Shown piece after piece: positions 1 through 34,730 of a stretch of DNA of 64,000 bases. The position numbers and the translations under genes are program-made. The notes beneath the pieces were generated by a model, which was not told the origin of the DNA, searched no databases, and was given only the letters and a program-made list of their open reading frames with translations. The stretch spans positions 193,003 through 257,002 of the forward strand of contig JAEHCQ010000001.1 in NCBI GenBank assembly GCA_020696385.1, in the 5' to 3' direction. Within the stretch, counting starts at the first letter, position 1. Every line of letters begins with the position of its first letter. This stretch comes from Methanobacteriota archaeon. Lineage in GTDB: Archaea > Thermoplasmatota > Thermoplasmata > SG8-5 > JAGLSY01.

Positions 1-3000
1 GAGAGCTGCCTCGTGAAGTCCAAGTTTGTCCAATAATTCTCCCTTTTCCATCAGCAGTTTTTCTGTTCCCGGGAAGAGAGCGAGATCCTCATCGATCTCT
101 TTCAACCTGGCCTTTGTTATCTCGATACCTGGGTCGGGAGCTTCATCCAACTCAAGGTCTTCAAGGCCATCATCATCTTGAATAATTGAACCTTGTAATA
201 TCTCCAATATCTGCTTCTTGTACTCGGGAGCCTTGTCCTCATTAAGCTCGGCCGCCTTGTCATAACATGATATTGCCTCGTCAAAGCTGCCAGCCTTTGC
301 CAGAAGCCTTGCCTTCTTCGCCCAGTGAATGTCATTATCTGGATCGTCCTGAATATTATCATCCATGGCATCCAGGTCCTCGAGGATGATGACATCGCCA
401 ATATCCATGTCGATGTCAACCACATCGGGAAGACCGATCTCCTCTTCCTCATCATCCATCCCAAGAAGTTGTTTTATGAAATCGTCAGTTGGCCCAGTAG
501 GTTCCACCTTCTCTTCAGGCTCATCACCAAGTTTTGACCATCGAGATAGGAAATCTTTTGATATTCCCCTCTTTTCCTCTTTTGTCTTGACATCTGGCAG
601 GACCAGGTCGGCTTCCAATTCCTCAAGAACATCCAGATCGGATAATTCATCTTCGTCCGTCAACGAATCCACCATGGATTCCAGACCGACTATTCCTGAA
701 GGGGCAACTTGATCATCATCATCATCAACTTGATCATCATCGTCATCAGTCAGGATATCAATGGGATCACCCAGGTCCAATGAAATATCATCGATGATAT
801 CATCATCAGAGATCATCTCGGATACTATTGGCTCATCAAGGTCCAGGTCTAGATCCAATAGATCGATATCATCAGATTCGGATGATGTCGATATTTGATC
901 GAGGAGCGATATCTCTTCAATTGGGTCTTCCTCGATTTCCGTCGTGAATAGCTCGATGCCATCCATGTCGAAACTATCATCCTGGGCGATTATATCCTCA
1001 AGGAGTTTTTCACCCAGTATATCTGATTCATCCATATCCGTAGATTCAACATCCTCAGATTCAACATCCTCAGATTCATCTTCGGATCCATATCCTTCCA
1101 GGACATCCGCAATGTCCATATCTACAGCGATGTCCTCAAGGGTAATGACCTGAGGTTCATCGATATCGAGTTGAAGCTCATCGGTATCCAACTCTTCCTC
1201 GCCAATATCAATTCCACAATCAGGGCATGCTGTGAGATCTGACTGGACAAAGGAACCACAACCTGGGCATAGATGGAGTTCTGCAACGCTCTCCTCCCAC
1301 TCCATGTCCTGCATGAGCTGATCCTCGGCATCCTTTGTATCTGTCACCTCGACCAGAAGATCAGAAAGCTCCTCGATCTCGCGTTCCGCCCTGACCTCTT
1401 TTTCAAGGTCAAGCTCCACATCCTGATCCTCATCATATACTGCTCCACAATTGGAGCACTTACCAGCATCTTCCGCCAGAAGAGCACCGCATTCCACACA
1501 CAGGAATATCTGGGTCCTTTCTTCCTTGTACCAGTGACCATCTGGCCCGTCTGGATCTATGCTAATATCATCATCAGATGGTTCAAGCTGCGAGATAGGT
1601 CGGTCATCGCCGGGCTCGAACTTCGCATGGCATATGTCACAACTGCTGGCGTCACCAGATAAGAAGGCGCCACAACTGGGACAGAGGAATAGTTCAGCTT
1701 CATCCTTGTACCAATGGCCATCAAGATCACTGTCGGTCTTTTCGACCAGCATATCGGCCAGTTCATCCGTATCCGCATCCATCTCGGGAGCGGATTCTTC
1801 CACAACTGGATCGAACTTCACGCCACAATTATTACATCTTGTGGCATCTTCCGAAATAAGTGCCCCACACTCAGGACACATGAAGAACTGGGACTTATCT
1901 TCCTTGTACCAGTAACCATCCGGAGCATCTGGATCTCTTACTATCTCGGGCTCCGTATCAGGGCTGACATCTACCTCATCATCTGCCTCGAACACTATGC
2001 CACAGTACTGACAGCTATCAGAGGCAGAGGATATGAAAGAACCACAGTTTGGACAGAGGAATAGCTCGGCATCATCCTTGTACCAGTGACCGTCCAATTC
2101 ATCAAGATCGGATGGCTCGTCTCCCAGCTCATCATCATTGAGGAGCATATCGGCCAGTTCTTTCAATTCACTGCTTTCTTCGGTAGATATAGCGGCTCCA
2201 AATTCGATCTGGTCATCTTCATTGTCCAGATCGGCATCTATCTGGACATCTCCCTCATCATCATCATGACTGGTGAACTCTTCCAGCATGCCCAGAATAT
2301 CTGAATCGGATGTCGTGGTCTCTGGAGGAAGTGGTTCCTTATCAAGCTTCGATCCGGTCTTGGCTTCCAAAAATGAAAGACCACAGGTATCACATTCAGA
2401 GGACTTTCCCGATATGAATGCACCGCAATCAGGGCAGAGGAAAAGCTCGGCCTTGTCCTTGTACCAGAAACCATCGATGTCATCATCTTCTTCCTCTTTC
2501 TCGGTGCCATCGACCAGCAGGTCCAAAATATCTTCAGATTCCTTATCTGGTTGTATCTCTGGCTCGGCCTTGTCCATTTCGAACTTGATCCCACAATGAG
2601 AGCATTGATCCGTATTTTCCGAGATCATGGAGCCGCACTCGGGACAGAGGAAGAACTGGCTCTTCTCCTCCTTGTACCAATAACCATCTGGAGCATCGGG
2701 ATCCTTTGCGACCTCGGGATCGACATCTGGGCTTATATCGGGCTCTTCACTAATCTCATCATCGACCTCGAACACAACTCCACACTTGGTGCAACTGCCA
2801 GCATCAGAGGGTATGAAAGACCCGCAATTGGGGCAGAGGAAAAGCTCGGCTTCATCCTTGTACCAGTGGCCGTCCAGATCGCTGTCGGCTTTTTCAACCA
2901 GCATATCAGCCAGTTGCTGAGTTTCCATGTCTGTTTCAGGAGATACATCCTCCATATCAGGATCGAACTTCACGCCACAGTTATTGCATTTGCTGGCATC

Positions 3001-3441
3001 TTCCGAAATAAGTGCCCCACAATCCGGGCACATGAAGAACTGGCTCTTATCTTCCTTGTACCAGAAGCCATCTGGACCATCAGGATCTATTTCAGGAGCT
3101 GGGGAAGCCTCCTCCTCGCCTTCAAAGGCGATGCCACAATTCGGGCAATTGTCCGTATCCTCTCCCAGAAGTGATCCACACATTGGACACATCGTTAGTC
3201 CAGTGCTTGTTTCCAGCTTGTCGGATGGCTCTCCATCCACATCCACCATCATCTCCGCATAATCCCTTATGCTGTATGCGAGACTCTTGCCTATGCCAGG
3301 TATGCCAGATAGCTCATCAAATGGGCATTCTACAAGTTCTTGCAATGACCTGAAGCCTGCGGAATAAAGAATTCGAGCTTTTGCTCTTCCTATACCCGGT
3401 ATGAGTAATAATTCTACAAGATGGTCATCACTAGTAGACAT
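1..3441 (-). CDS. Partial (C-terminal portion runs off window start) large acidic protein: N-terminal (HhH)2-like segment, ~10 tandem zinc-ribbon modules, long D/E-rich low-complexity tract, TPR-like tail
   Basis: Manual translation of the minus strand from the ATG at 3441 (revcomp of cat at 3439-3441) is open to position 1. The frame is confirmed at both ends: MSTSDDHLVELLLIPGIGRAKARILYSAGF... at the start and ...KLLMEKGELLDKLGLHEAAL at positions 60..1. It is absent from the ORF track because no stop lies inside the window. The repeated module is DG[HFY]WYK[ED]E...[LF]F[LM]CPxCG[AS]xIxxDAxxCxxCG. A TATA-like tatatact lies about 25-30 bp upstream. All listed plus-strand ORFs in 325..3353 are antisense shadows of this gene. 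Confidence 0.6.
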   Translation of the reverse strand, partial: MSTSDDHLVELLLIPGIGRAKARILYSAGFRSLQELVECPFDELSGIPGIGKSLAYSIRDYAEMMVDVDGEPSDKLETSTGLTMCPMCGSLLGEDTDNCPNCGIAFEGEEEASPAPEIDPDGPDGFWYKEDKSQFFMCPDCGALISEDASKCNNCGVKFDPDMEDVSPETDMETQQLADMLVEKADSDLDGHWYKDEAELFLCPNCGSFIPSDAGSCTKCGVVFEVDDEISEEPDISPDVDPEVAKDPDAPDGYWYKEEKSQFFLCPECGSMISENTDQCSHCGIKFEMDKAEPEIQPDKESEDILDLLVDGTEKEEEDDDIDGFWYKDKAELFLCPDCGAFISGKSSECDTCGLSFLEAKTGSKLDKEPLPPETTTSDSDILGMLEEFTSHDDDEGDVQIDADLDNEDDQIEFGAAISTEESSELKELADMLLNDDELGDEPSDLDELDGHWYKDDAELFLCPNCGSFISSASDSCQYCGIVFEADDEVDVSPDTEPEIVRDPDAPDGYWYKEDKSQFFMCPECGALISEDATRCNNCGVKFDPVVEESAPEMDADTDELADMLVEKTDSDLDGHWYKDEAELFLCPSCGAFLSGDASSCDICHAKFEPGDDRPISQLEPSDDDISIDPDGPDGHWYKEERTQIFLCVECGALLAEDAGKCSNCGAVYDEDQDVELDLEKEVRAEREIEELSDLLVEVTDTKDAEDQLMQDMEWEESVAELHLCPGCGSFVQSDLTACPDCGIDIGEEELDTDELQLDIDEPQVITLEDIAVDMDIADVLEGYGSEDESEDVESEDVESTDMDESDILGEKLLEDIIAQDDSFDMDGIELFTTEIEEDPIEEISLLDQISTSSESDDIDLLDLDLDLDEPIVSEMISDDDIIDDISLDLGDPIDILTDDDDDQVDDDDDQVAPSGIVGLESMVDSLTDEDELSDLDVLEELEADLVLPDVKTKEEKRGISKDFLSRWSKLGDEPEEKVEPTGPTDDFIKQLLGMDDEEEEIGLPDVVDIDMDIGDVIILEDLDAMDDNIQDDPDNDIHWAKKARLLAKAGSFDEAISCYDKAAELNEDKAPEYKKQILEILQGSIIQDDDGLEDLELDEAPDPGIEITKARLKEIDEDLALFPGTEKLLMEKGELLDKLGLHEAAL

Positions 3442-3571
3442 AAACAATACTAATTTGTTAAACTTAGTATATAGGCATTGTATCTCTAAAAATAGAGGGC
3501 GTATCTGTAAAATATGCTACAGCATTACAAAAAGTTGTTATTAAATAAGAGAAAATAAACTGAACTATCGA

Positions 3572-3594
3572 GGATATCGAGTAAGGCGATATCC
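3572..3594 (-). terminator. Hairpin (ggatatcg-agtaag-cgatatcc) followed on the minus strand by a T-rich tract, downstream of the regulator gene
   Basis: Perfect 8-9 bp inverted repeat at 3572-3579/3586-3594. The minus-strand continuation is T-rich (tttattttctcttattt). Confidence 0.3.
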
Positions 3595-3641
3595 TATACC
3601 TTTTTCATCATTCTTATATGGTGATCATAGGTAATGATGGC

Positions 3642-4352
3642 TCATATCTCAAGAGCTGTAGAAAAGGGATCCAGTCCTATATCCATTACATGTATCTCTG
3701 TCTTATGACCGATCTCCAAGATCAATCGATCATTGGAGCTCTTGATTATCTTGGGATTCTCTCCCCCTGACCTCAATTTTTCGATTATAAAATCTCGAAA
3801 GGCTTTTGTACGATCATATTTGGACTCGGACAATTCCGCAAGCAATCTCGTAGGGTAATATCGGGTATGAGTTCCTTCGCTCATCACACTGACAAGACCA
3901 ATACCTATCAATTTATTGACTATTATTGACAAACCCTGATGAGTCATATCAAAATCACTGGCATATTCTTTCTGGGTCATACCAGGGTCTTTTATTATCT
4001 TGATGAAAAGTGCTTTTGTCTTTTTTGAGGACAAAACACAGAATACATTGACATCCTCATCATCGATCTGGCCCTCAGGCCACACAGACCTCTTATGGCC
4101 GAACTTTCTCTCGACCAGATATTCGGAGGCTACGAGTTTACCAATATGCCATTTGACAGTCGTGTCACTCACATTGAGAATATCAGATATATCTTTCATA
4201 CCAAGGCATGGATGAAAGGTCAGAAGTGAGAAGATATTTCTGCGGATATTGTTCTCGAATATCCTGGCATCCTCGGATGTTTTACCAGGAGACTTGATAT
4301 TATCTGGATCTTTGATCGCACTTTCCAGAGCCTTTCCCACATTCTTGCTCAT
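3642..4352 (-). CDS. Transcriptional regulator with two winged-helix/HTH-like segments
   Basis: 236-aa ORF with two HTH-like stretches (DISDILNVSDTTVKWHIGKLVASEYLVERK and MTQKEYASDFDMTHQGLSIIVNKLIGIGLV). GGAG lies 8 nt upstream of the ATG. It sits immediately downstream of a KaiC-like ATPase gene. Confidence 0.55.
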   Translation of the reverse strand: MSKNVGKALESAIKDPDNIKSPGKTSEDARIFENNIRRNIFSLLTFHPCLGMKDISDILNVSDTTVKWHIGKLVASEYLVERKFGHKRSVWPEGQIDDEDVNVFCVLSSKKTKALFIKIIKDPGMTQKEYASDFDMTHQGLSIIVNKLIGIGLVSVMSEGTHTRYYPTRLLAELSESKYDRTKAFRDFIIEKLRSGGENPKIIKSSNDRLILEIGHKTEIHVMDIGLDPFSTALEI

Positions 4353-4375
4353 GTCTGAATTCTCCTTTTTTTTTT

Positions 4376-4476
4376 AATGTGCGAACTTATTTCGCACATT
4401 ATTTTACTTCAATTTTTTGAAGTTATGAATGTGCGAACTTGTTTCGCACATTATTTTACTTCGAATTATTCGAAGT
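4376..4476. repeat. Tandem duplication (52-bp period) of a composite site: palindrome A (AATGTGCGAA-n5-TTCGCACATT) plus palindrome B (ACTTCRAA-n3/4-TTYGAAGT) with an AT-rich TATA-like core between them. Likely operator/promoter of the regulator gene and/or terminator of the KaiC-like gene
   Basis: A1 at 4376-4400, B1 at 4406-4423, A2 at 4428-4452, B2 at 4458-4476. All arms are perfect inverted repeats read directly from the sequence. The site lies 24 bp upstream of the regulator ATG (4352) and overlaps the stop of the KaiC-like gene (4466). Confidence 0.7.
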
Positions 4477-5347
4477 CCTGATACTCGGCCAATATGGCAT
4501 TGATAAGCTCGGCTGTATTGACCTCCGCGAGATCCCTGTTCCTGAGATCCTTCAATGAACTGGCCAGTCTTTTGAAAACATAGGATGGGATCTTACCTTC
4601 CACCTTATTGAAATCAATGGCAAAATCATCAACCTTATCGCGCAATGATGTCAATGGATAATCACCAGCCTGAACAACAAGACCAAAGCCTTTCATGAGA
4701 GAATATGGATGCTCCTGATCACTGTGGGAACTGGATCTACATTTGACGATCTTCAATTTCCTCTCCAATTTAGAGCCCGCCTCAAAGCAGCTTCGCAGAT
4801 GGATCACACAGTCTGATAGGTACATTGGGATAACGGTCTCTGTTCCGGATAGATCTCCGATAGTACCATGCTCCTCAAGAGTGCAGAGTACGGTGCCAAC
4901 CTTCCTTGTTTCCTTCAGCATGAAGCCAATTAGATCTCGCTGTTCATATCTATCAGATGTTGACCATATCACAGGTGTTAGGGGATCCACTGCAATTCGG
5001 GCATTGGCACCTTTCCATGATGATACGAAATCAGGTAATTCTTTCTTTATGAACTGAGAGAATTCAAGACCACTGGCATCGATGAACACAAGTTTTTCAT
5101 CCTCTATGAAGTTCAGTATCTCCGTCCAGCCCATCTCGATAGCTTCCTTGATGATCTGCTCTTTGTTCTCATCAAGACTGACGAATATACCTTCCTGGCC
5201 GGCTTCCAATCCTCTTCTTATGAACTGGGTGGCGAAGGTGGTCTTTCCCGCACCACTCATGCCAATGACGACAGTGGTGGAATTCTCATTGATGCCTCCG
5301 TCCAGAAGGCCATTGAGTCCGTATATCCCACTGCTAATTTTTTTCAT
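4466..5347 (-). CDS. KaiC/RadA-like single-domain RecA-superfamily ATPase
   Basis: N-terminal GIYGLNGLLDGG motif, Walker A GMSGAGKT and a Walker B-like hydrophobic stretch ending VFIDAS. Confidence 0.8.
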   Translation of the reverse strand: MKKISSGIYGLNGLLDGGINENSTTVVIGMSGAGKTTFATQFIRRGLEAGQEGIFVSLDENKEQIIKEAIEMGWTEILNFIEDEKLVFIDASGLEFSQFIKKELPDFVSSWKGANARIAVDPLTPVIWSTSDRYEQRDLIGFMLKETRKVGTVLCTLEEHGTIGDLSGTETVIPMYLSDCVIHLRSCFEAGSKLERKLKIVKCRSSSHSDQEHPYSLMKGFGLVVQAGDYPLTSLRDKVDDFAIDFNKVEGKIPSYVFKRLASSLKDLRNRDLAEVNTAELINAILAEYQDFE

Positions 5348-5369
5348 TTATCATCAACTCATATTTGTA

Positions 5370-6386
5370 TTATAGACCTCGATTCTGAAGTATTTGATCT
5401 TCAGGGATCTGTCCAATGTCAAGACCTGGCATGGCATTTCCAAGCCCCATGGAAACTTCAGTCAGTGTCTTCGCGTCCTCGAAGTTCGTAACCGCATCCG
5501 CGATGGACTTGGCCATCTTCTTGGGATCACTGGATTTGAAAATTCCAGAGCCTACAAACACACCATCGCAACCCATGCTCATCATGAGGCTTGCGTCTGC
5601 TGGTGTTGCTATTCCACCTGCGGCGAAGTTCACAACTGGCAATCTGCCAAGATCACGTATCTCTATCAATATGGCCTTCACGTCTGCTTTCCAGTCAGCC
5701 ATTTTCCTTCCGCCAAATACAATTTCATCTGCCGATGTCTCATCATCGCACCATTCCTGACGACTTGCCATCTCCAGCTTTCCGAAGGGTTTGGCATAAG
5801 TGTGGGCCACGGCATCCAATTTCTCATCATCGATGATCTTCAAGTTCTCGATCATCTGGTTGACAAGGTGCATGTGCCTGACAGCCTCAACGACATTGCC
5901 AGTCCCGGCCTCGCCCTTGGTCCTTATCATGGCCGCACCCTCGGCGATACGCCTGACAGCCTCACCCAGATAGGTGCAACCGCAGACAAATGGAACTGTG
6001 AATTCGGATTTATCAATGTGATAATATGGATCTGCCGGAGTTAGAACCTCGGACTCGTCGATCATGTCCGCGCCCATTGACTCCCATATACGGGCTTCTG
6101 CGAAATGGCCGATTCTAACTTTGGCCATCACCGGAATACTTACCTCATCCAATATCTCCTGGAGCTTGGTCGGGTCCGCGGCTCTGGCGACACCACCCAT
6201 TGCTCTGATATCGGATGGCACTCGCTCGAGGGACATGACAGCCACCGCTCCTGCATCCTCCGCGATCCTGGCCTGCTCGGCTGTAACAACGTCCATGATG
6301 ACGCCGCCTTTCTGCATCTTGGCAAATCCTCTCTTGAGAAGTTCGGTCCCGTGTCTGAATGAATTAAGGTCTATGTCAATCGGCAA
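5370..6386 (-). CDS. pdxS: Pyridoxal 5'-phosphate synthase lyase subunit PdxS
   Basis: Strong PdxS/SNZ-family sequence character: [26 protein letters not shown], the active-site region and a C-terminal GxGIFKS motif. The N-terminus may begin at an internal start. Confidence 0.9.
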
Positions 6387-6512
6387 TATATCACCAGTTT
6401 ACCCAATAAATACATCTGTATTTTAAAGTATTGGAAGATGGACATGATAATTTAATGCGAATTATTAATGAAAAAAGGAAAGATAATCATTATCAATAAT
6501 AAAAGGAAAGAT

Positions 6513-6539
6513 GATGATGGTCTTTGAAGGACCATCATC
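6513..6539 (-). terminator. Hairpin (gatgatggtc/gaccatcatc) followed on the minus strand by a T-rich tract, downstream of pepF
   Basis: Perfect 10-bp inverted repeat at 6513-6522/6530-6539 with a 7-nt loop. The minus-strand continuation is atctttccttttattattg. Confidence 0.35.
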
Positions 6540-6561
6540 TTTCTGTGTTCGAGTCTAGGAA

Positions 6562-8427
6562 TTAATATCCAACTTCCTTGGCCAGATCCTCAGCCTGCTT
6601 GACCAGTTCATCGACAAGGTCGAATCCCCTCTGCCAGAATCCTGGATCTGTAATGTCCAGACCCATTTTTGCAACCGTGTTCTTCGGGTAGTCGGAACCT
6701 CCAGCTCTTAGAAGATCCAGATACTTTCCGACGAACTCGTCGCCAGTCCTTCTGTATTCCTCATAGAGTGATAGAACCATCAATTCCCCGAAGGAATAGG
6801 CGTATGTGTAGAAAGGATAGTGGATGAAGTGTAGCACGTACGACCACCACTTACCATACTCCTCGGTCATGGCAACGGAGTCTCCGAACATCCATTCATT
6901 CTCCTCGGTCCAGATCTTGTGCAGATCCTCGGGTTTTAGCTCGCCTATGTCCCGTCGATGAGCGTGCATGCGCTTCTCGAACCTGGTCATCATCACCTGA
7001 CGGAAGGAAGTGGCGAATATGTCCTCTATCTTTCCGCAGAGAAGTGAAAGCCTGAGCTTTGGATCATCCTCCTTGTCCAACAGACTGTGGAATAGGATCA
7101 TCTCACCCATGACGCTGGCCGTCTCAGCCATGGCCAGTGATGTGCTCATCTGCAGGTATCCCTGCTCCCTGGCAAGATACTGATGAATTCCATGCCCCAA
7201 TTCATGAGCCATGGTCATCGTGTCCGATAGATTATCTGTGTGATTGAGCTTGATATAAGGGTGCATATCGGGTGTTATGCCAGCACTGAATGCGCCACCC
7301 TCTTTTCCATGCCTTACTTCAGCATCGATCCAGTTATTGTCGAAGAATTTCTGAGCAATCTCGCCAGATATCGGTGAGAAGTTCTTGTATGATTCCAGAG
7401 TCATGTTCTTCGCATCCTCATAGAGGCATTCCTTCTCGATTGGAAGAATTGGTGCATATCTGTCATAATCATACAGTTTGTCCAGACCCATTATTCTCTT
7501 TTTCAGGTTGTAGAAACGGGCGACCAGTTCCACATTTTTGTCCGTTGCATCCAGTAAGCTGTTGACAGTGGAATCATCCACCTGATTGTCCATGTTCCTG
7601 ACTGCCATCGGGTGCTTGTAGTCTCTGAACTTATCATGGGTGTAATGATCCTGAACAAGGGTATTGAACACGAAAGTGAGAAGGGACATCTTGTCCTCCA
7701 GAGCATCGGTGACAGCCTTGTGGGCGTGGATCCTCAAATCCCTATCGGGATTGCGGAGATAATTCAATGCAGCGTCGAGTGGGAATTCCTTCTCTTCTCC
7801 GCCATCATTGATCTTGACCACCATCTGGCCCATTGTTTCATCAAATAATCTTATGAAAGCGGATTTGCCAGTATTGGAAAGAGCATCCCATACCTTTTCT
7901 TCACCCTCTGTGAGCTGATGTGGGGCTCTCAGTCTCTCGACTTCCAGATAATGCCTGAATTTGGCAACCTCTGGACTGTCCAGTAATTTCTGGGCTTCAG
8001 CATCGTCTATCCTGCACCAGGCCAGGGAGAAGAATATCATATGGGCTTCTATCTCCGTGAACTCCTCCTGAGCTTTGGATATCAAAGCTCCGTTTTCTGG
8101 TTTGAGACAATCCCCCGTAAAGGTCAGATGTGCGAAATAAAGGGGTTTGACAGCATCCTGGTATATGTTTTCAAGTTCTTCCACGGCTTCGAAGAGATCG
8201 GTCGGCGAAACACCTGGCTTGATGATATCCCTGTACTTGCTTTCAAAAGAACTAGCTCTTTGCTTGATGGCCCGGATATCGCTATCTATCTTGGGATCGT
8301 CTATACCAGCATAGAAATCTGTCAGATCCCAGCGAACTCCATGAGCACTACTTTTCTTGTCTTCCATATTAACACCTTTTAGGAACATAATATAAGGGTG
8401 GGTATTAGTGCTTTTTGTTAGGTTCAA
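6562..8427 (-). CDS. pepF: Oligoendopeptidase F (M3B family metallopeptidase)
   Basis: 621 aa with the HEXXH zinc motif (AHELGHGIH) and a downstream E. Length and layout are typical of PepF. Confidence 0.85.
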   Translation of the reverse strand: MNLTKSTNTHPYIMFLKGVNMEDKKSSAHGVRWDLTDFYAGIDDPKIDSDIRAIKQRASSFESKYRDIIKPGVSPTDLFEAVEELENIYQDAVKPLYFAHLTFTGDCLKPENGALISKAQEEFTEIEAHMIFFSLAWCRIDDAEAQKLLDSPEVAKFRHYLEVERLRAPHQLTEGEEKVWDALSNTGKSAFIRLFDETMGQMVVKINDGGEEKEFPLDAALNYLRNPDRDLRIHAHKAVTDALEDKMSLLTFVFNTLVQDHYTHDKFRDYKHPMAVRNMDNQVDDSTVNSLLDATDKNVELVARFYNLKKRIMGLDKLYDYDRYAPILPIEKECLYEDAKNMTLESYKNFSPISGEIAQKFFDNNWIDAEVRHGKEGGAFSAGITPDMHPYIKLNHTDNLSDTMTMAHELGHGIHQYLAREQGYLQMSTSLAMAETASVMGEMILFHSLLDKEDDPKLRLSLLCGKIEDIFATSFRQVMMTRFEKRMHAHRRDIGELKPEDLHKIWTEENEWMFGDSVAMTEEYGKWWSYVLHFIHYPFYTYAYSFGELMVLSLYEEYRRTGDEFVGKYLDLLRAGGSDYPKNTVAKMGLDITDPGFWQRGFDLVDELVKQAEDLAKEVGY

Positions 8428-8822
8428 AGATTATTGAGGTATAACATGCGCAAGGTGTATCGGTATATTCCCAACATAGCGTATTCTCAGCAAGGCATAT
8501 TCCCAACAATGTACATGTGGATTAGTTCGAGCATGCCCCGTCTGGATTATTCATAGAATATTCATCAGGGCGGGGTACTATATTCTATATTTCAGTGGGT
8601 GACAGTCGCGATGTGTCAGTGGGAAGATAAACTCCTCGCTCAAGACAAGTCTAAGTTCATATTTCTAGCCTTGTTCAAAATGCGAGGAGTCAAATTAAGC
8701 CTCGCCTCGATCAAAGCAGGGGCGAGGTCCTTATCCACACCCAGCATAACAAACTAAACTTCGTCAATTGACGTACCCAAACATAGAAAGATACTTATTA
8801 TCTCAAGTAATCTTCATCCCAG

Positions 8823-9647
8823 ATGGGACGCACATACCCTAGAGGAGGGGTGGAAACTTTGGTTCTGGATATTGAATATGAAACTATCGCGCTTGTATTC
8901 GAAGAAGGCATGGTGAAACTTGAGCTTGATAGGCCGGATGTTCACAATGCTTTCAATGATGTCATGATAGCTGAGATCACGGATGCTTTTGATAAATTGG
9001 CAGCAAAAAAAGAGATACTGGCTATTATAATCACCGGAAATGGAAAGAGCTTCTGCGCAGGAGCTGATCTCAATTGGATGAAGAAGATGGCAGGCTATTC
9101 CAGAGATGAGAATATTGAAGATGCCAGAAAAATGGCCAATATGTTCATGGCCATTCAAGAATGTCCATTTCCCACGATTGCCAGGGTGAATGGAGCCGCC
9201 TTCGGTGGAGGTGTTGGCCTGGTCGCGGTCTGTGACTTTGCTTTCGCATCCCCAAATGCCAAATTTTCCTTTAGTGAGACCAATCTTGGTTTGATACCGG
9301 CAGTCATTTCAAAATGGGTGATAGGGCGCGTTGGCTCGAAAAAAGCCAAACAATTATTCATGACTGGCGAGAGATTCGATACTTCCCTCGCTTGTGATAT
9401 CAAATTAATAGATGGCTCGGCGCATGATCTGGATGGCACGATCAACGAGGTCGTGGCGCAATTCAAGACCAGTGGCCCCATGTCGATAATCGAGTCCAAG
9501 AAGCTGGTCGACCAATATGGAAATGAAGATTTCCTGGAATATTCCATCGCCGCAATTGCAGATCTACGAGCATCCGATGAAGGCCGGGAGGGTATAGCGG
9601 CCTTCCTGGACAAGAGAAAGTCAACATGGAGGAGAGATTCAGAATGA
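8823..9647 (+). CDS. Enoyl-CoA hydratase/isomerase (crotonase) family protein, possibly a methylglutaconyl-CoA hydratase-like enzyme given the neighbours
   Basis: Crotonase-fold motifs (LDRPDVHNAFND, ITGNGKSFCAGADL, FGGGVGL). The start is uncertain: in-frame GTG at 8850 and TTG at 8859 with GGAGG at 8843-8847. The stop overlaps the next gene's start in an ATGA. Confidence 0.8.
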   Translation: MGRTYPRGGVETLVLDIEYETIALVFEEGMVKLELDRPDVHNAFNDVMIAEITDAFDKLAAKKEILAIIITGNGKSFCAGADLNWMKKMAGYSRDENIEDARKMANMFMAIQECPFPTIARVNGAAFGGGVGLVAVCDFAFASPNAKFSFSETNLGLIPAVISKWVIGRVGSKKAKQLFMTGERFDTSLACDIKLIDGSAHDLDGTINEVVAQFKTSGPMSIIESKKLVDQYGNEDFLEYSIAAIADLRASDEGREGIAAFLDKRKSTWRRDSE

Positions 9648-11146
9648 TCAAGAAAGTCCTTATAGCCAATAGAGGCGAGATCGCGGTTCGCGTGATCAAC
9701 GCTTGCCAGGAGATGGGTATCCAGACAGTCGCGATATACTCGGATGTGGATGAGGGGGCTTTGCATGTACATAATGCTGATGAGGCATATCCTCTGGGTG
9801 ATCCAACTCCTTCAGAGAGCTATCTGAATATCCCGAAGATACTGGACATCGCTGCAAAGAGCGGCGCGGATGCGATCCATCCAGGTTATGGTTTTCTTTC
9901 AGAAAGAGAAGAATTCGCAGAGGCTTGCGTGAAAGCTGGATTCATATTCATAGGTCCCAGTGCGGAGGTCATTCATGGAATGGGTGACAAGATCGAGGCA
10001 AAGCGCACCATGGCCAATGCCGGAGTGCCAGTTATTCCAGGATTCACAGGAGGCGATGAAGATGGTGATGATACCCTTGAGCAGGCATGCCAGCGTATCG
10101 GTTTCCCTGTTCTTATCAAGGCAACCGCAGGTGGTGGCGGCAAGGGAATGAAGGTCGTTGAAACGATGGAAGACCTGAACAGTGCTGTTGATTCCGCCAG
10201 AAGGGAAGCCATGTCATCCTTCGGCAATGATCAATTACTGCTCGAAAAATACCTGGAGAAGCCCAGGCATATCGAGTTCCAGATACTGGCTGATAATCAT
10301 GGAAAGATCCTGCATCTATTCGAGAGAGAATGCTCCATCCAGCGCAGACACCAGAAGGTCATAGAGGAATCACCTTCTGTCGTGATCGATGATGATCTCA
10401 GGAGCAGGATGGGCGATGCCGCGATACTGGCTGCCAAGACCATCGGATACACTAATGCTGGCACAGTGGAGTTCATGGTGGATAAAAATAAGGATTTCTA
10501 TTTCCTAGAAATGAATACAAGGCTTCAGGTGGAACATGCGATCACGGAGATGACAACTGGCATCGATATCGTGAAATGGCAGCTGCGAATTGCTTCTGAT
10601 GAACCACTGACATTGGAGCAGGATGAAATAGGGCAGAGAGGGCATTCCATAGAGTGTCGTATCTATGCCGAGGACCCGGAGCAGGGATTCATGCCATCCA
10701 CCGGGAAGCTGAGAACGGTGGATGTTCCACATGGCATCAATATCAGACATGATACTGGGGTGAAGGAGGGAGTGGAGATCACTCCTTACTATGATCCTAT
10801 GTTGGCCAAGCTCATCGTGCGTGGTGAAAAGCGCGAGGATGCCATAAACAAGATGAAATGGGCATTGTCCAATTACATCACACTGGGTGTTACGACCAAT
10901 GTGCCTTTTCTCAGAGCGATAATTGCTCATGAGGCCTTCGCCAGCGGAGACATAGACACCCATTTCATTGACACGTATTTCAAGGACTGGATACAAGCGG
11001 CGGAGCTTCCATTGGAGGTACTGATCGCCGCTGCGCTGGATGATGTCAAACAGAGCGGCCTATCAAAGGATGATGATCAAAGGGACGAGGCGCATGATGC
11101 GCATTCCCCATGGAAGAGTGCGGGGCCCTGGAGGATAGATAGTTGA
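9644..11146 (+). CDS. accC: Biotin carboxylase subunit of an acyl-CoA carboxylase (AccC-like; no fused BCCP domain)
   Basis: ATP-grasp biotin carboxylase motifs (MIKKVLIANRGEIAVRVI, GGGGKGM, EMNTRLQVEH). The start was moved to the ATG at 9644, which has an AGGAGAG RBS and forms an ATGA overlap with the upstream stop. The track's 9626 start lacks an RBS. Confidence 0.9.
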   Translation: MIKKVLIANRGEIAVRVINACQEMGIQTVAIYSDVDEGALHVHNADEAYPLGDPTPSESYLNIPKILDIAAKSGADAIHPGYGFLSEREEFAEACVKAGFIFIGPSAEVIHGMGDKIEAKRTMANAGVPVIPGFTGGDEDGDDTLEQACQRIGFPVLIKATAGGGGKGMKVVETMEDLNSAVDSARREAMSSFGNDQLLLEKYLEKPRHIEFQILADNHGKILHLFERECSIQRRHQKVIEESPSVVIDDDLRSRMGDAAILAAKTIGYTNAGTVEFMVDKNKDFYFLEMNTRLQVEHAITEMTTGIDIVKWQLRIASDEPLTLEQDEIGQRGHSIECRIYAEDPEQGFMPSTGKLRTVDVPHGINIRHDTGVKEGVEITPYYDPMLAKLIVRGEKREDAINKMKWALSNYITLGVTTNVPFLRAIIAHEAFASGDIDTHFIDTYFKDWIQAAELPLEVLIAAALDDVKQSGLSKDDDQRDEAHDAHSPWKSAGPWRIDS

Positions 11147-11158
11147 GGTGGTGATATA

Positions 11159-11674
11159 ATGGAATTTCAATATGAATATGCAGGGAAATCATATCCAGTT
11201 AAAATGAAGCGAGACGGCGATCATTTTACCGCCACCATCGGTGATAAGGAGTATGAGGTATCCTCCAAGGAGATCAAGCCAGGCTTTTTCATTATCAATA
11301 TAGATGGAAAGCCTGTTAAGGTATCCATCGCATCAGAAGGGAGCCAACGCCACATATTCCATGCGGGGGCGGTTTACAGATTCACCAAGCTGGAAGGCCG
11401 CAAGCGAGGCGGAGATCAAGATGGCGAAATATCACCCGAGATAACATCGCCAATCTCTGGTAAGCTTGTGAAAGTGGACTCGACGGATGGAGAGGAGGTC
11501 GAAGCAGGCCAGAGCCTGATGACCATCGAGGCCATGAAGATGGAATATCAGATCAAAGCCCCATACGGTGGGAAGGTGGAGAAAGTCAATTTCAAGGAGG
11601 GCGATCAAGTGGATATTGGCGTCGTTCTCATAATCATGGAAAAGAAAGAGGAAGAAGAGGTCAAGGAAGAGTGA
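11159..11674 (+). CDS. accB: Biotin carboxyl carrier protein (biotinyl/lipoyl domain)
   Basis: C-terminal biotinyl domain with the EAMKMEY attachment-lysine motif, a glycine-rich hinge and an E/K-rich tail. Confidence 0.85.
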   Translation: MEFQYEYAGKSYPVKMKRDGDHFTATIGDKEYEVSSKEIKPGFFIINIDGKPVKVSIASEGSQRHIFHAGAVYRFTKLEGRKRGGDQDGEISPEITSPISGKLVKVDSTDGEEVEAGQSLMTIEAMKMEYQIKAPYGGKVEKVNFKEGDQVDIGVVLIIMEKKEEEEVKEE

Positions 11675-11736
11675 TTTGAATGAGAGAACTAAGTGATCTC
11701 ATTCAAAATCACGTAATATTAATGGAGTGATTCAAG

Positions 11737-13344
11737 ATGGATGCGATAGAGAGCCAGATAGATGTTAATAGCGAGGATTTCAAGGAGAATAAAGAGCATT
11801 ATCTTCTCATGGTGGCTGACCTTAAAGAGAAGGTGGCATGGGCCAAGGCCGGAGGCGGAGATAAGGTCATAGCCCTTCACAAGGAAAGAGGGAAGATGCT
11901 GGCCAGGGAGAGAATAGACGCCCTGGTGGACTCGGATACTCCTTTCCTGGAACTGAACCCGCTCGCGGGATTAGGGATGTATGATAATAAAGCCCCAGGC
12001 GCTGGCATAGTGACTGGCATTGGAGCTGTACACGGCAATGAGGTAATGATAATAGCCAATGATGCCACCGTGAAAGGCGGCACTTACTTCCCGATGACCG
12101 TGAAGAAACACATTCGTGCCCAGGATATCGCGATGGAGAATAATCTTCCATGTATCTACCTGGTTGATTCTGGCGGGGCTTTCCTTCCAATGCAGGACGA
12201 GGTGTTCCCGGATAGAGAACATTTCGGAAGGATATTCTACAATCAGGCCCAGATGTCATCCAGGATGATACCACAGATAGCACTTGTTATGGGTTCATGC
12301 ACCGCGGGTGGGGCATACGTGCCCGCGATGTCAGATGAAACGGTTATCGTCAAGGGAACTGGCACCATCTTTTTGGGAGGACCACCTCTTGTCAAGGCCG
12401 CGACTGGAGAAGTCGTGAGCGCGGAGGATCTCGGAGGTGCTGACGTGCACTGCCGCCAGTCCGGAGTTTCAGATCATTATGCCACCAGCGACGAGGAGGC
12501 ACTTTCCATCGGTCGGAACATCATCGAGAACCTCAATCGGCCAAAAAAGACGTATATGAAGATCAAGAAACCTGAAGACCCCCTATATCCGATAGATGAG
12601 ATATACGGCATAATATCAAAGGACTCGCGGAAGCCTTTCGAGGTCCGCGAGATAATAGCCAGACTGGTCGATGGCAGTAAGTTCCACGAGTTCAAAGAAT
12701 TGTACGGAACAACCCTTGTCACGGGCTTCGCCCACATCATGGGTTATCCTGTTGGAATACTGGCCAATAATGGCGTACTGTTCTCAGAGAGTGCGTTGAA
12801 AGGCACTCACTTCATCGAGCTGTGCTGCCAGCGTAAGATACCACTGGTCTTCCTACAGAACATAACTGGCTTCATGATAGGCAGGGAATACGAGGCAAAG
12901 GGAATAGCAAAGGACGGTGCCAAAATGGTGGCAGCGGTCTCCAATGCCCAGGTTCCGAAATTCACAGTTCTGATCGGTGGGTCTTTCGGTGCTGGCAACT
13001 ACGGAATGTGCGGACGCGCTTATGATCCGCGCCAGCTGTGGATGTGGCCCAATGCCCGGATCTCGGTTATGGGCGGAGAGCAAGCTGCCAATGTACTTTC
13101 CACGGTCAAGAAAGATCAATTGTTCAGAAAAGGAGTGGAGATGAGCGACGACGAGGTCGATGAGCTCAAGAAGCCAATTCTGGAGAAGTACGAGATGGAA
13201 GGCAATCCCTACTACTCGAGTGCGAGGATATGGGATGATGGTATCATCGATCCGGTCCAGACGAGGTTGGTACTGGCGCTTGGAATAAGTGCTTCACTGA
13301 ATGCGGATATCCCTGAGGCTCCATTCAGCTTATACAGAATGTAA
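11737..13344 (+). CDS. Acyl-CoA carboxylase carboxyltransferase subunit, closest in character to the methylcrotonyl-CoA carboxylase beta subunit (MCCB/LiuB-like)
   Basis: 535 aa. The N-terminal region ([37 protein letters not shown]...[60 protein letters not shown]) closely follows the MCCB pattern. Confidence 0.85.
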
Positions 13345-21805: not shown

Positions 21806-24800
21806 TTATTTCTTTTCAACGGTTATCTCACACTCGGAAGACCCATCTGCCATGGTCTTCCTGAGCTTGATATCTATTTCAGATTTCGAACGCTGAGCGA
21901 ATTTACTGGCAATGCCCCTGCATAGAATACAAAGGATCAAATTCCTTGTTTCCTGATTGTTCCACGGACATCCAATGACCTTCGTAAGGCATGAATCTTC
22001 ACTGACACAATCCAGATATGATTCACCTCCAAGATCTTCCAGAACCCGAATATAAGCCCTTCCGATATCCTTAGCAGTATCCTCACCAATGCCATCATAA
22101 TACCTCTTATCCAGTACACCTTCCAATTTATCAGATAGATTCTCGATGAACTGAACACGGTCCGTACTGCCCATTGAATCAAGGAATATGGGGACCAGGT
22201 CCGTGAGCACGGACTTCATCTCGAACTGAGCCTCGAGAATACGTTGCTTGACATCCTCTTCCTGTCGTCGTTTTTCTTCGGTCATATCCCTGACAATTGT
22301 GACAATACTGACAACCTGGCCGCCTTCCATTAGCGGGATCTTCCGGGTTTGGGTCGTGTACACCTTTCCATCAATATCAATATCTTCTGAAGTCTCAATT
22401 ATTTGACCGTCCTCGAAGACCTTTTTATATTCAGCCATAACACTTTCCGATAGGAATGGGAATATGTCAGTGACATGTTTGCCAACGGCGTCTGTGCAAT
22501 TGAGGCTCAGCTCACTGCACCATTCTTGGAATGACTCATTGAAGATGGTTATTATCATATTCCTGTCAACGACATGGATGGAATCACTGATGGAATTAAC
22601 AGTGGATCGATATTGTGCTTCGGAGGTCCTTCTCTGATTTTCAGCCTGTTTCCTTTCAGTAATGTCCCTGACAAAGCCCACGGTGTAAAATTCATCTTTG
22701 ATCTTGTATTCGTGGATCGAGACCTCGGCATCAAAGGTCGAGCCATCATTCTTACGAACTGCCTTGAACTCGTAGTATGTTGGAGCAAATTTGCCGGCCG
22801 TCCTCTGGACATGGTACTCGCTCACCATAATGGCGGATTCGGGTGACATGAAATCACTGGGCTTCTTCCCAATAAGCTCCGACAGATCAGTACAGCCAAA
22901 GAGCTCGACCAATCTCGGATTCGCATAGATGAACCTTTCGTCCTTCTCTATACCTATGCCATCAGTGGAGGCATGGAAAAAGGCATCCAGTTGATTCTGG
23001 AAGGCAAATCGCTCTTCCTCTGCCTTTCTTTTTTCGGTTATGTCCCTCACATACTCTATGACACCAGTTAGCTCACCAGTATCTACATCGTGCATGGGGA
23101 AACTGTGCAATTCCAACCAGCCTATATGGGCATTGTCCTGGCCTATCTTTCTTATCACTCTTAATTCGGATTCATCTAAGGCCAGAACATCACGACTTGG
23201 GCATTTGCATTCCCCATCCGGGCTATCACATTGAAGGAGATCATTGCATGTTTTTCCTTCAAAGGGCATCTTGTGAGGGAACCATTTCTCGATCGTCTTA
23301 TTGGTGCTGACTATCTTCAGATCTGTATCCATGACTATGAGGCCGTCCTGTATACTTTCGAATATATTGGCCAGGAATCTCTCGCCATCTCTAAGGGCTC
23401 TTTCAGACCTCTTCCGCTGAGTTATGTCCCTGACGACCGAGATAAAACCACTGGGCTTATTGTTCAGCATGTAGGGTGACAACTTGGCCGAAAACCACAG
23501 ATCGATTTTTTCAGTCTTTAAAGGATATTCGAATTCATATATATCTCCATTCTTAGTCTTCTCAAATCCAATATCGATTTGCTCGGATATCATTGGTGGC
23601 AGAACATCAGAATATTTCCGACCTAAAAAGTCCTCTGGCTTGGCTATTAATTTAGTATTTTCTGGGGAATGGTAGAATATAAAAACGCCTTCAGAATCCA
23701 CACCGAAAACAAGGTCATCCATGGATGAGAATATCCCTCTTATCTTCTCATGTGATTCCTGAATAGCCTTCTCGGACTTCTTCCTATCTGTGATGTCTCT
23801 GGCAATGGCACAATTGTATTCTTTATCCTTATACCGAATGTAATTATTAGTGACCTCGACCGAGAACTCAGCGCCATCCTTTGTCTTGTACACAGACTCA
23901 TATAAGGATGATCGGACATTCTTCAATCCATCCCAATGGCCCTTCCAATGATCGGCCCATCTATCCTTTGGGAAGTGTAGATCTATGTCGGCCACGGACA
24001 TTCCAAGGAGCTCTGACCTAGTATAACCCAAACTCTCACAGGCTGCATTGTTCACATAGAAGAAATTGGCGTCAGAATCCATCCAGAAGGTCGCATCGGA
24101 CATACGTTCTATGGCAAATTGGGTGATGAGAGGAGCTTCTTCAGCCTTCTTCCTCTCGGTGATATCCGTGTCAAGACCTCTGTAACCCACCAGATCATTA
24201 TTCTTATCCAATATCGGAGTTCCACTTGTTTCCAGGAATACCACATGTCCTTCCTTGTGGAGGTTTGTGTTTTCGAATTTGATGATATGCTCTTTCCTTT
24301 CAAAGGCTGATATGGCAGCCTGTTTCATCTCATCTCTGGCATCCAATGTGAAAAAATCATAGAAATGTTTCTTGCCCACCACTTCTTCAGGCTTGTAACC
24401 AAGTATCCTTTCGATGGCTGGGCTAGCATAGGTGTACAGGCCATTCGCATCCACTTCCCATATCCACTCGCCTGCACTTTCAGCCACCTGCCTGAAGCGC
24501 TCCTCGCTCTCAATAAGGCTATCTTCTGCTTTTTTCTTCTCGGAAATATCCCGAACAATATGGACAAAATTGGTTGTGGGGCCTGAGTCATTAATCACCG
24601 GTTCAACTGAAACATGGAACCATCTGCCCCCTTCCTCGAATTCCATTGTCTCTCTCTTACCAGATAACTTGCTTTTCGCTAATGGACAATCATCAGGAGG
24701 TGCGCCCTTGTGAACGATCTCATTGCATACCTTTCCTATGATCTCTTCACGAGGCAGACCAAGAATGTACTCGGAAGCTTGATTAGATTGGATGATCAGG

Positions 24801-26827: not shown

Positions 26828-26831
26828 ATGC

Positions 26832-34060: not shown

Positions 34061-34678
34061 TCACCAAGGCACCTCCTTCTTTCCCATCTTGTAGCCGATT
34101 ATATTGGTCAGCCGATGCAGGATGGGTATTAGTATGACTATGAAAATAAGACCAAAGATATGATCTCCGGCAAGGTACTGGCTCTCGAACCACGAGAACT
34201 CGAATATTAAAATGAAAATAAGGGAACCGATAAGTAGGTCATATTGGTCCATTATCGGAAATTTCGAGCCTTTTTCCTTTCCCAGTCTTCTCTTGAGAAA
34301 ACTGCCAAGAAGGTCGCCCACCATTGAACCAAAAGCCAGGAAGAACAAAAGTGGAATGGCATCTCCCCATTCCCCGAAGGACCACTCTGGCTTGTCAAGA
34401 ACATATAATGCCAAAATATTGAATATCGCGCCCAGTGCCATACCCGTGAGAGTGCCGCCGATCAAACCGCGCCATGTCTTGCCAGGGCCAAGTATCGGTC
34501 TCCCATCCTTGGCCATCTTGCCAAAGTCAATAGGAGTTCCACCCCCGGTAAGAACGGCTCCGGAACTGGGAGCCAGGGCTGGAAGGATAAACCATAATGC
34601 CTGTCCGAGGATAGTAACGATTCCCATCAGTTGGAGAAGGTGGAACTGATAGAAAAGGTTGAGGGTGGGGTTATGCAA
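34061..34678 (-). CDS. carS: CDP-archaeol synthase (CarS, DUF46 family)
   Basis: Polytopic membrane protein with GKTWRGLIGG and DLLGSFLKRRLG motifs characteristic of CarS. The start is possibly at an internal Met. Confidence 0.7.
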   Translation of the reverse strand: MHNPTLNLFYQFHLLQLMGIVTILGQALWFILPALAPSSGAVLTGGGTPIDFGKMAKDGRPILGPGKTWRGLIGGTLTGMALGAIFNILALYVLDKPEWSFGEWGDAIPLLFFLAFGSMVGDLLGSFLKRRLGKEKGSKFPIMDQYDLLIGSLIFILIFEFSWFESQYLAGDHIFGLIFIVILIPILHRLTNIIGYKMGKKEVPW

Positions 34679-34730
34679 AATTACTTCAATAATCCTGCTA
34701 TGTTCAATAGATTACCAAGGAGAAGAGCCC

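Follow-up and report, generated by a model that had tools for sequence, protein, structure and literature searches.

What does an archaeon encode in a reading frame that starts inside a stretch of DNA and leaves it without having met a stop codon? The stretch considered here, referred to throughout as the window, comprises 64,000 nucleotides (nt) from a Methanobacteriota archaeon of the Thermoplasmatota lineage (assembly GCA_020696385.1, contig JAEHCQ010000001.1, positions 193,003 to 257,002), and the frame in question lies on its minus strand, from position 3441 down to position 1. Because the frame runs off the window start, the gene is missing from ORF (open reading frame) listings. An earlier note, made from the letters of the DNA, had recognised a large gene with a DNA-binding head, about ten zinc ribbons and a very long acidic tail, and had taken its product for a nucleic-acid or chromatin-associated scaffold, or a platform binding metal or protein. 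We confirm the gene, and find that the window holds only half of a protein whose other half very probably ties it to the membrane.

Re-translation from 3441 to 1 gave 1147 codons and no stop; at the base composition of the window, a stop-free run of this length has a chance probability of ~3e-28. The start is the ATG at 3441, the first start downstream of an in-frame TAG at 3519. An exhaustive search of representative proteins returned P0027 (2283 amino acids, aa), which is 100% identical to the window product over aa 1-1147, and the DNA of a second locus (L005, contig JAEHCP010000017.1) is 100% identical to the window across 9.4 kb, that is, the gene part and 6 kb upstream. On the strength of this identity the full product can be read with confidence. 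Inside the window it comprises an (HhH)2 (double helix-hairpin-helix) head, ten four-cysteine (C4) zinc ribbons on strings rich in aspartate and glutamate (D/E), a hyper-acidic spacer, the motif GISKDFLSRW and two repeats resembling tetratricopeptide repeats (TPRs). Beyond the window follow the rest of the second TPR, a basic NG repeat, a transmembrane (TM) helix, an ectodomain and an anchor made of P-E-F, a second TM helix and a basic tail. We put at about nine in ten the probability that positions 1..3441 encode the cytoplasmic N-terminal half of a 2283-aa protein that is anchored in the membrane at two points. The features of this half are as follows.

1..3441, minus strand: first 1147 codons of a gene of 6852 nt (2283 aa), from the stop-free translation, P0027 and the DNA of L005; the remainder lies beyond the window start
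3253..3426, minus strand: (HhH)2 head, aa 6-63, with hairpins PGIGRAKA and PGIGKSLA, from Pfam HHH_5 and a family profile
3136..3189, minus strand: zinc ribbon 0, aa 85-102, CPMC..CPNC, without DGxWYK, from a regular-expression search
1216..3072, minus strand: nine further C4 zinc ribbons with D/E-rich linkers between them, from Pfam, NCBIfam, identity matrices, DNA repeats and AlphaFold2 (AF2)
1351..2916, minus strand: short amphipathic motif of the linkers, [QED]-[LI]-x-[DG]-[ML]-L-[VLE] ('ELADMLVE'), present six times, from a regular-expression scan
592..1215, minus strand: hyper-acidic, cysteine-free linker, aa 743-950, predicted from its composition to be disordered
538..567, minus strand: conserved motif GISKDFLSRW, aa 959-968, from family comparison
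1..333, minus strand: two TPR-like helical repeats, aa 1037-1070 and, truncated by the edge of the window, aa 1115-1147, from sub-threshold Pfam matches and homologues

The fragment carries 341 acidic and 69 basic residues. Acidity of this order could be a property of the whole proteome; this explanation was rejected, since D+E content is 29.7% in the giant gene, against a median of 14.4% across 28 other long ORFs of the window, and is thus specific to that gene.

The zinc-ribbon array makes up the greater part of the listed features, and had been estimated at about ten modules. A regular-expression search for CxxC-x10-CxxC found exactly ten (at aa 85, 138, 203, 266, 336, 463, 522, 587, 648 and 725), which together account for 40 of the 42 cysteines of the fragment. 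The element DGxWYK, earlier written into the pattern of all modules, precedes eight of them by 14 residues (aa 124, 190, 252, 323, 450, 508, 574 and 634); it is missing from ribbon 0 and from the module at aa 725. Subtype A ribbons, with the consensus PDGxWYKEEKSQFFxCPECGALISEDA..C.NCGVKF, lie at aa 138, 266, 522 and 648; subtype B ribbons, with the consensus LDGHWYKDEAELFLCPNCGSFI....C..CG.VFE, lie at aa 203, 336, 463 and 587, with a degenerate B (B') at aa 725. The order is 0-A-B-A-B, a 110-aa acidic insert, and then B-A-B-A-B'. Identity matrices bear out the alternation of two subtypes that had been noticed in the translation, but not the description of the modules as near-identical: identities are 50-88% inside one subtype and 22-42% between subtypes. 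Repeats in the DNA (families D1-D5), which include a 300-nt A+B pair duplicated 1152 nt apart, are merely 65-80% identical. The array is therefore old and diverged, and we rejected both a recent expansion and an artefact of assembly.

Are the modules a known domain? Two CxxC knuckles about ten residues apart and profile scores above cutoff identify them as zinc ribbons: Pfam Zn_ribbon_3 matches nine stretches with 121 bits (cutoff 27), DZR reaches 88.6 bits (cutoff 27.3), and UPF0547 is also matched. The NCBIfam model of the HVO_0416 zinc finger attains a summed 84.3 bits against a cutoff of 80, because eight stretches add up; the best of these covers model positions 36-55 only, in a protein of 2283 aa, so that the domain is related but the protein is not an HVO_0416 equivalog. 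Records of PF28085 'HVO_0416' exist for the full-length form of the window protein (L005) and for a paralogue in locus L007. The earlier note could name no described family and allowed that profile searches might reveal one. For the ribbons they do, with all four of these models scoring above their cutoffs; the array and the architecture as a whole correspond to no described family.

To the single module, AF2 (run on an alignment of 37 DGxWYK modules) gave the fold of an ordinary two-hairpin zinc ribbon, with a pLDDT of 77 overall and 88-90 over the knuckles, so the structure prediction that had been suggested for one module yields a plain ribbon. The net charge of all ten ribbons is acidic (-2 to -7), which makes direct binding of nucleic acid unlikely and docking of proteins more likely. 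Scans of the window product with Pfam and NCBIfam returned no match at E <= 1 to the zf-HC2/anti-sigma signature (ZAS, H-x3-C-x2-C). Membership in the RanBP2/NZF fingers was rejected on the C-x2-C-x10-C-x2-C spacing, a tryptophan placed 12 (not 2) residues before the first cysteine, the lack of a conserved asparagine and Foldseek E values >= 0.46. C4 ribbons hold structural, not exchangeable, zinc, and for this reason we rate a role in zinc storage as unlikely.

The head is equally well defined. Pfam HHH_5 matches aa 10-60 with 43.9 bits (cutoff 27; 3.3e-11) and HHH_2 scores 30.3 bits (cutoff 27); with two hairpins carrying G-h-G in a domain of about 60 aa, the (HhH)2-like N-terminus proposed earlier is upheld. 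A profile built from nine family heads and run against the PDB had as its top matches domain 5 of Hjm/Hel308 (7e-16), the N-extension of haloarchaeal eL32 (1e-13), Topo V (4e-12) and the N-domain of Rad51/RadA (2e-9), followed by PolX, NusA, UvrC, Hef/XPF, FAAP24, DisA and ComEA. Every PDB match is an (HhH)2 domain that handles nucleic acid, and the basic residues trailing hairpin 1 (R/K-x-K/R-A) are kept across the family. By homology alone, then, the head may bind the backbone of DNA or RNA without sequence specificity. Some HhH2 domains serve protein contacts instead.

Copies of the ELADMLVE-type motif begin at aa 176, 304, 381, 428, 560 and 691; one precedes each B-type ribbon in its linker, and the sixth lies inside the 110-aa insert. 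The motif recurs elsewhere, with four copies in the closest relative, P0001, and one or two in P0012 and P0014, proteins of unrelated architecture that belong to a second family (below). What had been called a very long acidic tail is indeed acidic, with 38-41% D/E, the figures over aa 761-950 being 41% D+E and 1% K+R, and the linker at aa 743-950 has no Pfam match; it is, however, not a tail, since GISKDFLSRW and the TPR-like helices follow. The motif is present as G[IV]S[KR][DE]F[LMV][SDE]RW in L001, P0002, P0005, P0006, P0008, P0010 and L028. Pfam TPR_1/2/8 scores 20.3 bits at aa 1040-1069, below the cutoff of 27.8; homologues carry strong TPR_9/TPR_1 matches on record, and a segment search finds the motif/TPR segment conserved in the family.

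The remainder, readable from L005, contains the anchors. Directly before the first TM helix stands a basic tetrapeptide repeat, [RKL]-[VT]-N-G, of about 160 aa and about 40 copies (P0027 aa 1176-1335; L005 ~9526-10005), with a period-4 autocorrelation of 0.61 for glycine and a net charge of +19. The repeat is kept in the family, where NG occurs up to 21 times in 100 aa, and has no counterpart among Pfam or NCBIfam families; weak FliH matches there are compositional. The TM helix, with basic residues ahead of it, occupies ~aa 1338-1360, so that the cytoplasmic region measures ~1335 aa. About 890 aa of extracellular sequence follow, a ~650-aa beta-sandwich block and then two CLIPPER/DUF11 domains. 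The C-terminus, ...VVVIPEFSSVLPLALGIMGITFIGFRRRKEVI, consists of P-E-F, a hydrophobic helix and a basic cluster. Since the protein has no signal peptide, since all 40 zinc-ligand cysteines lie N-terminal to the first TM helix, and since basic residues stand on the cytoplasmic side of both helices, the positive-inside rule makes it likely that the N-terminus is inside, the ectodomain outside and the C-terminal tail inside.

For the ectodomain, AF2 was run on the ~650-aa conserved block with an 11-sequence alignment and P0002 as target. The model is all-beta (pLDDT 77.5, pTM 0.72). The 53 Foldseek matches in the PDB at E <= 1e-3 (E from 5e-7) are the legs of integrin alpha chains, the carbohydrate-binding modules at the N-terminus of sialidases from Bacteroidetes, pilins, adhesins of the Cna and AgI/II types, and a module resembling cohesin. 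The chain being multi-domain, its TM-scores stay low (0.1-0.2). The model supports only the view that the ectodomain is a string of beta-sandwich domains of surface or adhesin type, with no enzyme fold. CLIPPER/DUF11 (PF01345) scores 80.4 bits against 24.6, with two copies, in the L001 orthologue and is on record for L005/P0027; NCBIfam models matched DUF11 and, below threshold, an isopeptide domain. CLIPPER is a cross-linked stalk domain of surface proteins in bacteria and archaea (PMC12617251). The tripartite C-terminal signal is conserved in the family as P-E-[FMLY], so that processing by an archaeosortase is plausible from the sequence; the PEF-CTERM model TIGR03024 (cutoff 23) gives sub-threshold scores of 10.7 bits for the 2283-aa protein and 21.6 for P0008, and PEP_CTERM gives 15.9 against 16.

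Separately, the window encodes a second giant envelope protein within the same 64 kb: a surface-type protein of 1968 aa (34659-40565, plus strand) with a GLUG motif, right-handed beta-helix/NosD, cadherin-like and Big_9 domains.

How widespread is the giant protein? A word-indexed search found 18 homologues and an exhaustive search 1165 at E <= 1e-3, 30 of them at E <= 1e-30. The family table comes from segment-wise phmmer on the 53 top-ranked proteins. The HhH head and the ectodomain block occur together in 20 of the 53 (1276-2545 aa), mostly representatives of 50%-identity clusters; in most of these 20 they are accompanied by the motif/TPR segment, by the NG repeat, and by P-E-[FMLY] with a TM helix and a basic C-terminus. 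Ribbons number from two (P0056, P0060) to 12 (P0002); the ten of the window protein are near the top of this range. At the level of sequence, the comparison thus shows head, motif, TPR, TM helix and ectodomain to be fixed, and the ribbon array to be an evolutionarily elastic insert. The syntenic orthologue in the sister genome (L001, 2301 aa) has the same plan and is 76.7% identical over the window part. Homologues bear generic public names, such as 'zinc ribbon domain-containing protein [Thermoplasmata archaeon]'; the comparison with relatives that had been recommended therefore marks this as a protein of Thermoplasmatota type. A literature search found no paper on this architecture or gene cluster. 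The individual domains are all of known types; their combination, and its coupling to the gene pair described below, appear undescribed.

Two sets of relatives depart from this plan. In a complete Methanomassiliicoccales genome (L028, CP070739.1, 10738-13361) the family member has only 874 aa, with HhH, four ribbons, TPR, GVSRDFRRRW and a long E-rich acidic tail; it ends before any TM helix or ectodomain, and 0.5 kb downstream stands a DDE insertion sequence (IS) transposase. Either this is a soluble version that occurs naturally, or IS activity has shortened the gene. A second family, apparently larger, is found in Thermoplasmatota/Euryarchaeota (P0011-P0018, P0051, P0055, P0058, P0061, P0063 and P0065-P0067; ~1000-1200 aa). 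Like the window protein it has an acidic ribbon-array N-terminus, in some members with HhH and the ELxDMLV motif; unlike it, it continues into a polytopic core (three to six TM helices in a simple hydropathy scan) and C-terminal TPRs, in place of a single TM helix and a large ectodomain, and lacks GISKDFLSRW and the NG repeat.

The elements flanking the giant gene are listed here.

3468..3473, minus strand: TATA box TATATA, ~29 nt upstream of the ATG, from the sequence and an alignment of ten loci
3524..3538, minus strand: palindromic element ACAA-N4-TTGTAAT, ~50 nt upstream of the TATA box, a candidate operator, from cross-locus alignment
3642..4352, minus strand: upstream neighbour, a double winged helix-turn-helix (wHTH) protein (ArsR/MarR-like) of 236 aa, Pfam HTH_24 36.5 bits
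4466..5347, minus strand: upstream neighbour, a single-domain KaiC/RAD55-like ATPase of the RecA superfamily, 293 aa, Pfam PF06745 120.8 bits
L005:12854-13024 (just beyond the window start), L001:16903-17073, L002:13514-13660, L003:12575-12724 and L031:17461-17595: small ORF with a TM helix

The ATPase assignment is firm (PF06745 120.8 bits against a cutoff of 26.6; KaiC in the PDB at 8.5e-36), and no NCBIfam equivalog cutoff is reached. A PDB sequence search with the wHTH protein returned nothing at E <= 0.01 and so lends no support to an ESCRT-II-like reading of it. ATPase and wHTH genes, in this order, lie directly upstream of the giant gene in the window and in L001, L002 (P0002), L003 (P0005), L006 (P0010), L009 (P0060), L028, L029, L030 and L031. 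The outer flanks of the cluster vary (PdxS in some loci, PolD DP2 in L009, thioredoxin). In L001, L002, L003, L006 and L009 the ATPases are 60-70% identical and the giant proteins only ~30-45%; wHTH orthologues in the same position are 30-41% identical in L002, L003, L006 and L009, and L028-L031 have an HTH gene of ~235 aa there. Locus L007 (Ga0366829_1001469, 1081-13058) shows a variant order: a giant gene, a 47-aa ORF, an HTH_20 gene, a divergent KaiC-like ATPase (26% identical to that of the window, with a DUF7125 match) and a second giant, the two giants being paralogues of 2325 and 2200 aa.

The association was also approached from the other side. A search with the ATPase gave 979 matches at E <= 1e-40, with at least 120 at >= 60% identity among the matches listed, and four orthologues on long contigs (L028-L031) were inspected. 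All four are followed by a wHTH gene and a family member (2212, 1458, 2245 and 874 aa). A metagenome scan seeded with an ATPase alignment yielded, among the matches listed, one incomplete orthologue and paralogues of 25-33% identity, and was not used for this reciprocal test. In five loci, finally, the stop codon of the giant gene is overlapped or directly adjoined by a short ORF of 44-56 aa, without a Pfam match, whose product carries a single TM helix at its C-terminus (conserved ..L.NLPL..); its translation is probably coupled to that of the giant gene.

Giant gene and wHTH gene are separated by 85-200 nt. When the ten intergenic regions are aligned they share a TATA box of CCTATATA type, 25-35 nt ahead of the ATG, and over the 105 nt before the ATG conservation with L001 exceeds that of the coding region. 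The giant gene thus probably has its own promoter, with a leaderless or short-leader mRNA, probably the former. The element ACAA-N4-TTGTAAT is aligned in most of the ten orthologous regions; its exact match is unique in the window, and its own reverse complement matches with one mismatch. About one match per window (<=1 mismatch) is expected by chance, and the evidence for the palindrome is therefore its conservation across loci and not its count. This candidate operator would be the site of a regulator acting as a dimer, for which the wHTH protein encoded next to it is the simplest choice. An Rfam scan of the whole 64-kb window found a single tRNA, far from the locus, and no RNA element at the giant gene.

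Three further loci of the window were recorded. Positions 21806-26854 (minus strand) encode a 1682-aa response regulator with a receiver domain, about ten PAS domains and a MetOD1 output domain. At 40577-43270 (minus strand) lies the gene of an 897-aa protein in which GNAT is fused to a region (CoA-binding, ATP-grasp_5) resembling ADP-forming acyl-CoA synthetase, the architecture of Pat-type protein acetyltransferases. An acyl-CoA carboxylase cluster occupies 8823-13344 (plus strand), with enoyl-CoA hydratase, biotin carboxylase (506 aa), a biotinyl/lipoyl-type protein (171 aa) and a carboxyltransferase (535 aa).

What, then, does the cytoplasmic half do? The reading we prefer, with a probability of roughly one in three, is that of a flexible, multivalent docking platform beneath the membrane. 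On this model the head would have as its ligand either a partner protein or, without specificity, nucleic acid; every acidic zinc ribbon, possibly together with the ELADMLVE linker motif, would form a protein-binding bead; the TPRs would add a further protein-binding site; and the number of beads (2-12 in the family) would set the valency. Docking of proteins on the ribbons is favoured by their net acidic charge, by the precedent of ZitP and GltJ (below) and by the nearest folds of the module model, weak matches though they are, which include RanBP2/Nup153 fingers on Ran-GDP, the Trabid NZF on ubiquitin and the ArnA ribbon; eL40, RadD and HVO_2753 are also among the nearest. In this way the protein may link cytoplasmic partners to a surface domain of adhesin or envelope type, much as in ZitP and GltJ, with the neighbouring wHTH protein most likely controlling the giant gene through the palindrome and the KaiC-like ATPase acting as its modulator. 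Of the scaffold or platform suggested by the earlier note, the polyvalent protein-binding platform remains the best account of the array; the soluble chromatin scaffold does not survive the finding of TM helices and an ectodomain.

Several observations weigh against the docking platform. The module model is of moderate confidence (pLDDT 77) and leaves the DGxWYK segment poorly defined; Foldseek with this single-module model gave no significant match in the PDB (best E 0.37) and supports no more than a generic ribbon. Any specific ligand would be a conjecture. The head has a net charge of -5 and its second hairpin reads GI[SDN] instead of GIG in several homologues, so that DNA binding by the head is not assured. 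One relative (L004/P0008) is without ATPase and wHTH neighbours; the ATPase family, with its 979 matches, is far better conserved than the giant gene, and may therefore have a broader job; and part of the conservation of the cluster could be inherited synteny.

Of the alternatives, the one that survives best, which we nonetheless hold to be unlikely, is an outside-in signalling device: the ectodomain would sense surface contact or the state of the envelope, and ribbons, TPRs or HhH head would sequester or release the wHTH protein, the ATPase or both. Such a device might be likened to the membrane-bound zinc-binding anti-sigma factors, or to the ATPase-regulator pair GvpD/GvpE. The triad of ATPase, wHTH and giant genes, conserved in 11 loci with varying outer flanks, is consistent with it, as are the conserved palindrome upstream of the giant gene's TATA box, the zinc ribbon and linker of GltJ acting as a switch, and a proposal by Makarova et al. 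(2017; cited in PMC5847659) that KaiC-like ATPases serve as hubs of signalling in archaea. Yet the Pfam and NCBIfam scans gave no zf-HC2/anti-sigma signature, a sensor has no obvious need of 2-12 ribbons and a 200-aa acidic spacer, an interaction with the wHTH protein or the ATPase would be conjectural, and P0008 lacks those neighbour genes.

At the other extreme, the cytoplasmic half may bind no partner at all and be a bulky, fast-evolving, disordered spacer or retention domain of an S-layer-like (surface-layer-like) protein, with neighbours kept by inherited synteny. Fast divergence (30-45% identity), variable ribbon number and low complexity are what such a domain would show, and PdxS is likewise syntenic in several loci; we consider it a poor candidate, given that HhH head, GISKDFLSRW, TPRs and the cysteine ligands of the ribbons are conserved across orders and that the triad persists despite differing outer flanks.

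Little separates this from a tether between chromosome and envelope, which we regard as improbable too: the head would sit on DNA and so fasten the nucleoid to the surface layer or the membrane, perhaps to serve segregation or division in archaea that mostly have no wall, with the ATPase and wHTH protein as partners on the DNA side. That the head profile matches nucleic-acid-handling (HhH)2 domains only (Hel308, Topo V, Rad51/RadA, PolX, ComEA, DisA), that the basic residues after hairpin 1 are conserved and that the ATPase is of the RAD55/KaiC/RadA-like superfamily would suit a tether. There is, however, only a single, net acidic HhH2 unit, at the end of a chain whose charge of about -270 would be expected to repel DNA, and HhH2 domains mediate protein contacts in some cases; there is no ParA/SegA-type partner, and the ribbon number is too variable for a precise machine.

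A soluble scaffold on nucleic acid or chromatin, a mimic of DNA or a platform for metal, as first imagined, for which the HhH head, 40 zinc-ligand cysteines and an acidic tract of hundreds of residues had spoken, is very improbable, because two TM segments and a ~890-aa ectodomain contradict 'soluble', the membrane-protein architecture is kept in at least 20 representatives, and the ribbons are acidic and of the C4 type, with structural, not exchangeable, zinc.

A larger and more speculative claim, which we hold to be unlikely, is that ATPase, double-wHTH protein and giant protein belong together as a system of three genes dedicated to one task and widespread in Thermoplasmatota, in which the membrane-spanning protein physically couples the surface to the cytoplasm as an archaeal counterpart of integrin/focal-adhesion-type linkers or as a nucleoid-envelope tether, the ATPase remodelling or reading the occupancy of the ribbon array and the regulator feeding back on the palindrome. 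The Thermoplasmatota include abundant marine, sediment and gut archaea, mostly uncultured and many without a cell wall. The giant family, conserved across orders, is among their largest proteins, and joins a surface stalk or adhesin module to an elaborate cytoplasmic domain and a conserved cluster. If either docking or signalling is true, then the locus offers a testable entry to communication between surface and cytoplasm in archaea and to the role of archaeal KaiC-like ATPases, together with a natural case of valency tuning through expansion of a zinc-ribbon array. If both are false, there is still a well-defined, unannotated family that deserves a name and a model.

Besides the second family described above, four known systems come closest to the protein. 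The bitopic proteins ZitP of Caulobacter and GltJ of Myxococcus likewise begin in the cytoplasm with a C4 zinc ribbon, from which a flexible linker leads to a TM helix and a domain outside the cytoplasm. The ribbon of ZitP binds PopZ, and that of GltJ binds a motif in its own linker, from which MglA-GTP displaces it, whereupon MglB is recruited (PMC11135422). They are bacterial, have one ribbon against ten, and lack the HhH head, acidic spacer, cytoplasmic TPRs and CLIPPER/PEF-CTERM ectodomain; we take them as a mechanistic precedent for units of ribbon plus linker motif, a resemblance, with sequence homology shown no further than the generic ribbon. The small archaeal zinc-ribbon families (HVO_0416, Zn_ribbon_3, DZR) have profiles that match the modules. 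HVO_0416 itself is a stand-alone micro-protein of 58 aa whose deletion raises biofilm formation in Haloferax (PMC6562870), whereas here the domain is repeated ten times in 2283 aa, mostly with an added N-terminal DGxWYK extension. The RanBP2/NZF arrays of Nup358, Nup153 and TRABID also repeat small C4 knuckles on flexible linkers, with each finger taking up a single ligand protein (Ran-GDP, ubiquitin); they are eukaryotic, with the spacing W-x-C-x2-C-x3-N-x6-C-x2-C and match E values of 0.4-2, and the analogy is one of principle only. CLIPPER (DUF11) CTERM surface proteins, finally, share the two CLIPPER domains and the PEF/TM/basic tail, an arrangement matching the stalks seen in archaeal surface proteins and in fibrillar adhesins (PMC12617251). 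A signal peptide at the N-terminus and the lack of any cytoplasmic domain are typical of that group, whereas the giant protein has an internal TM helix after a cytoplasmic region of ~1335 aa, and an ectodomain tethered at both ends.

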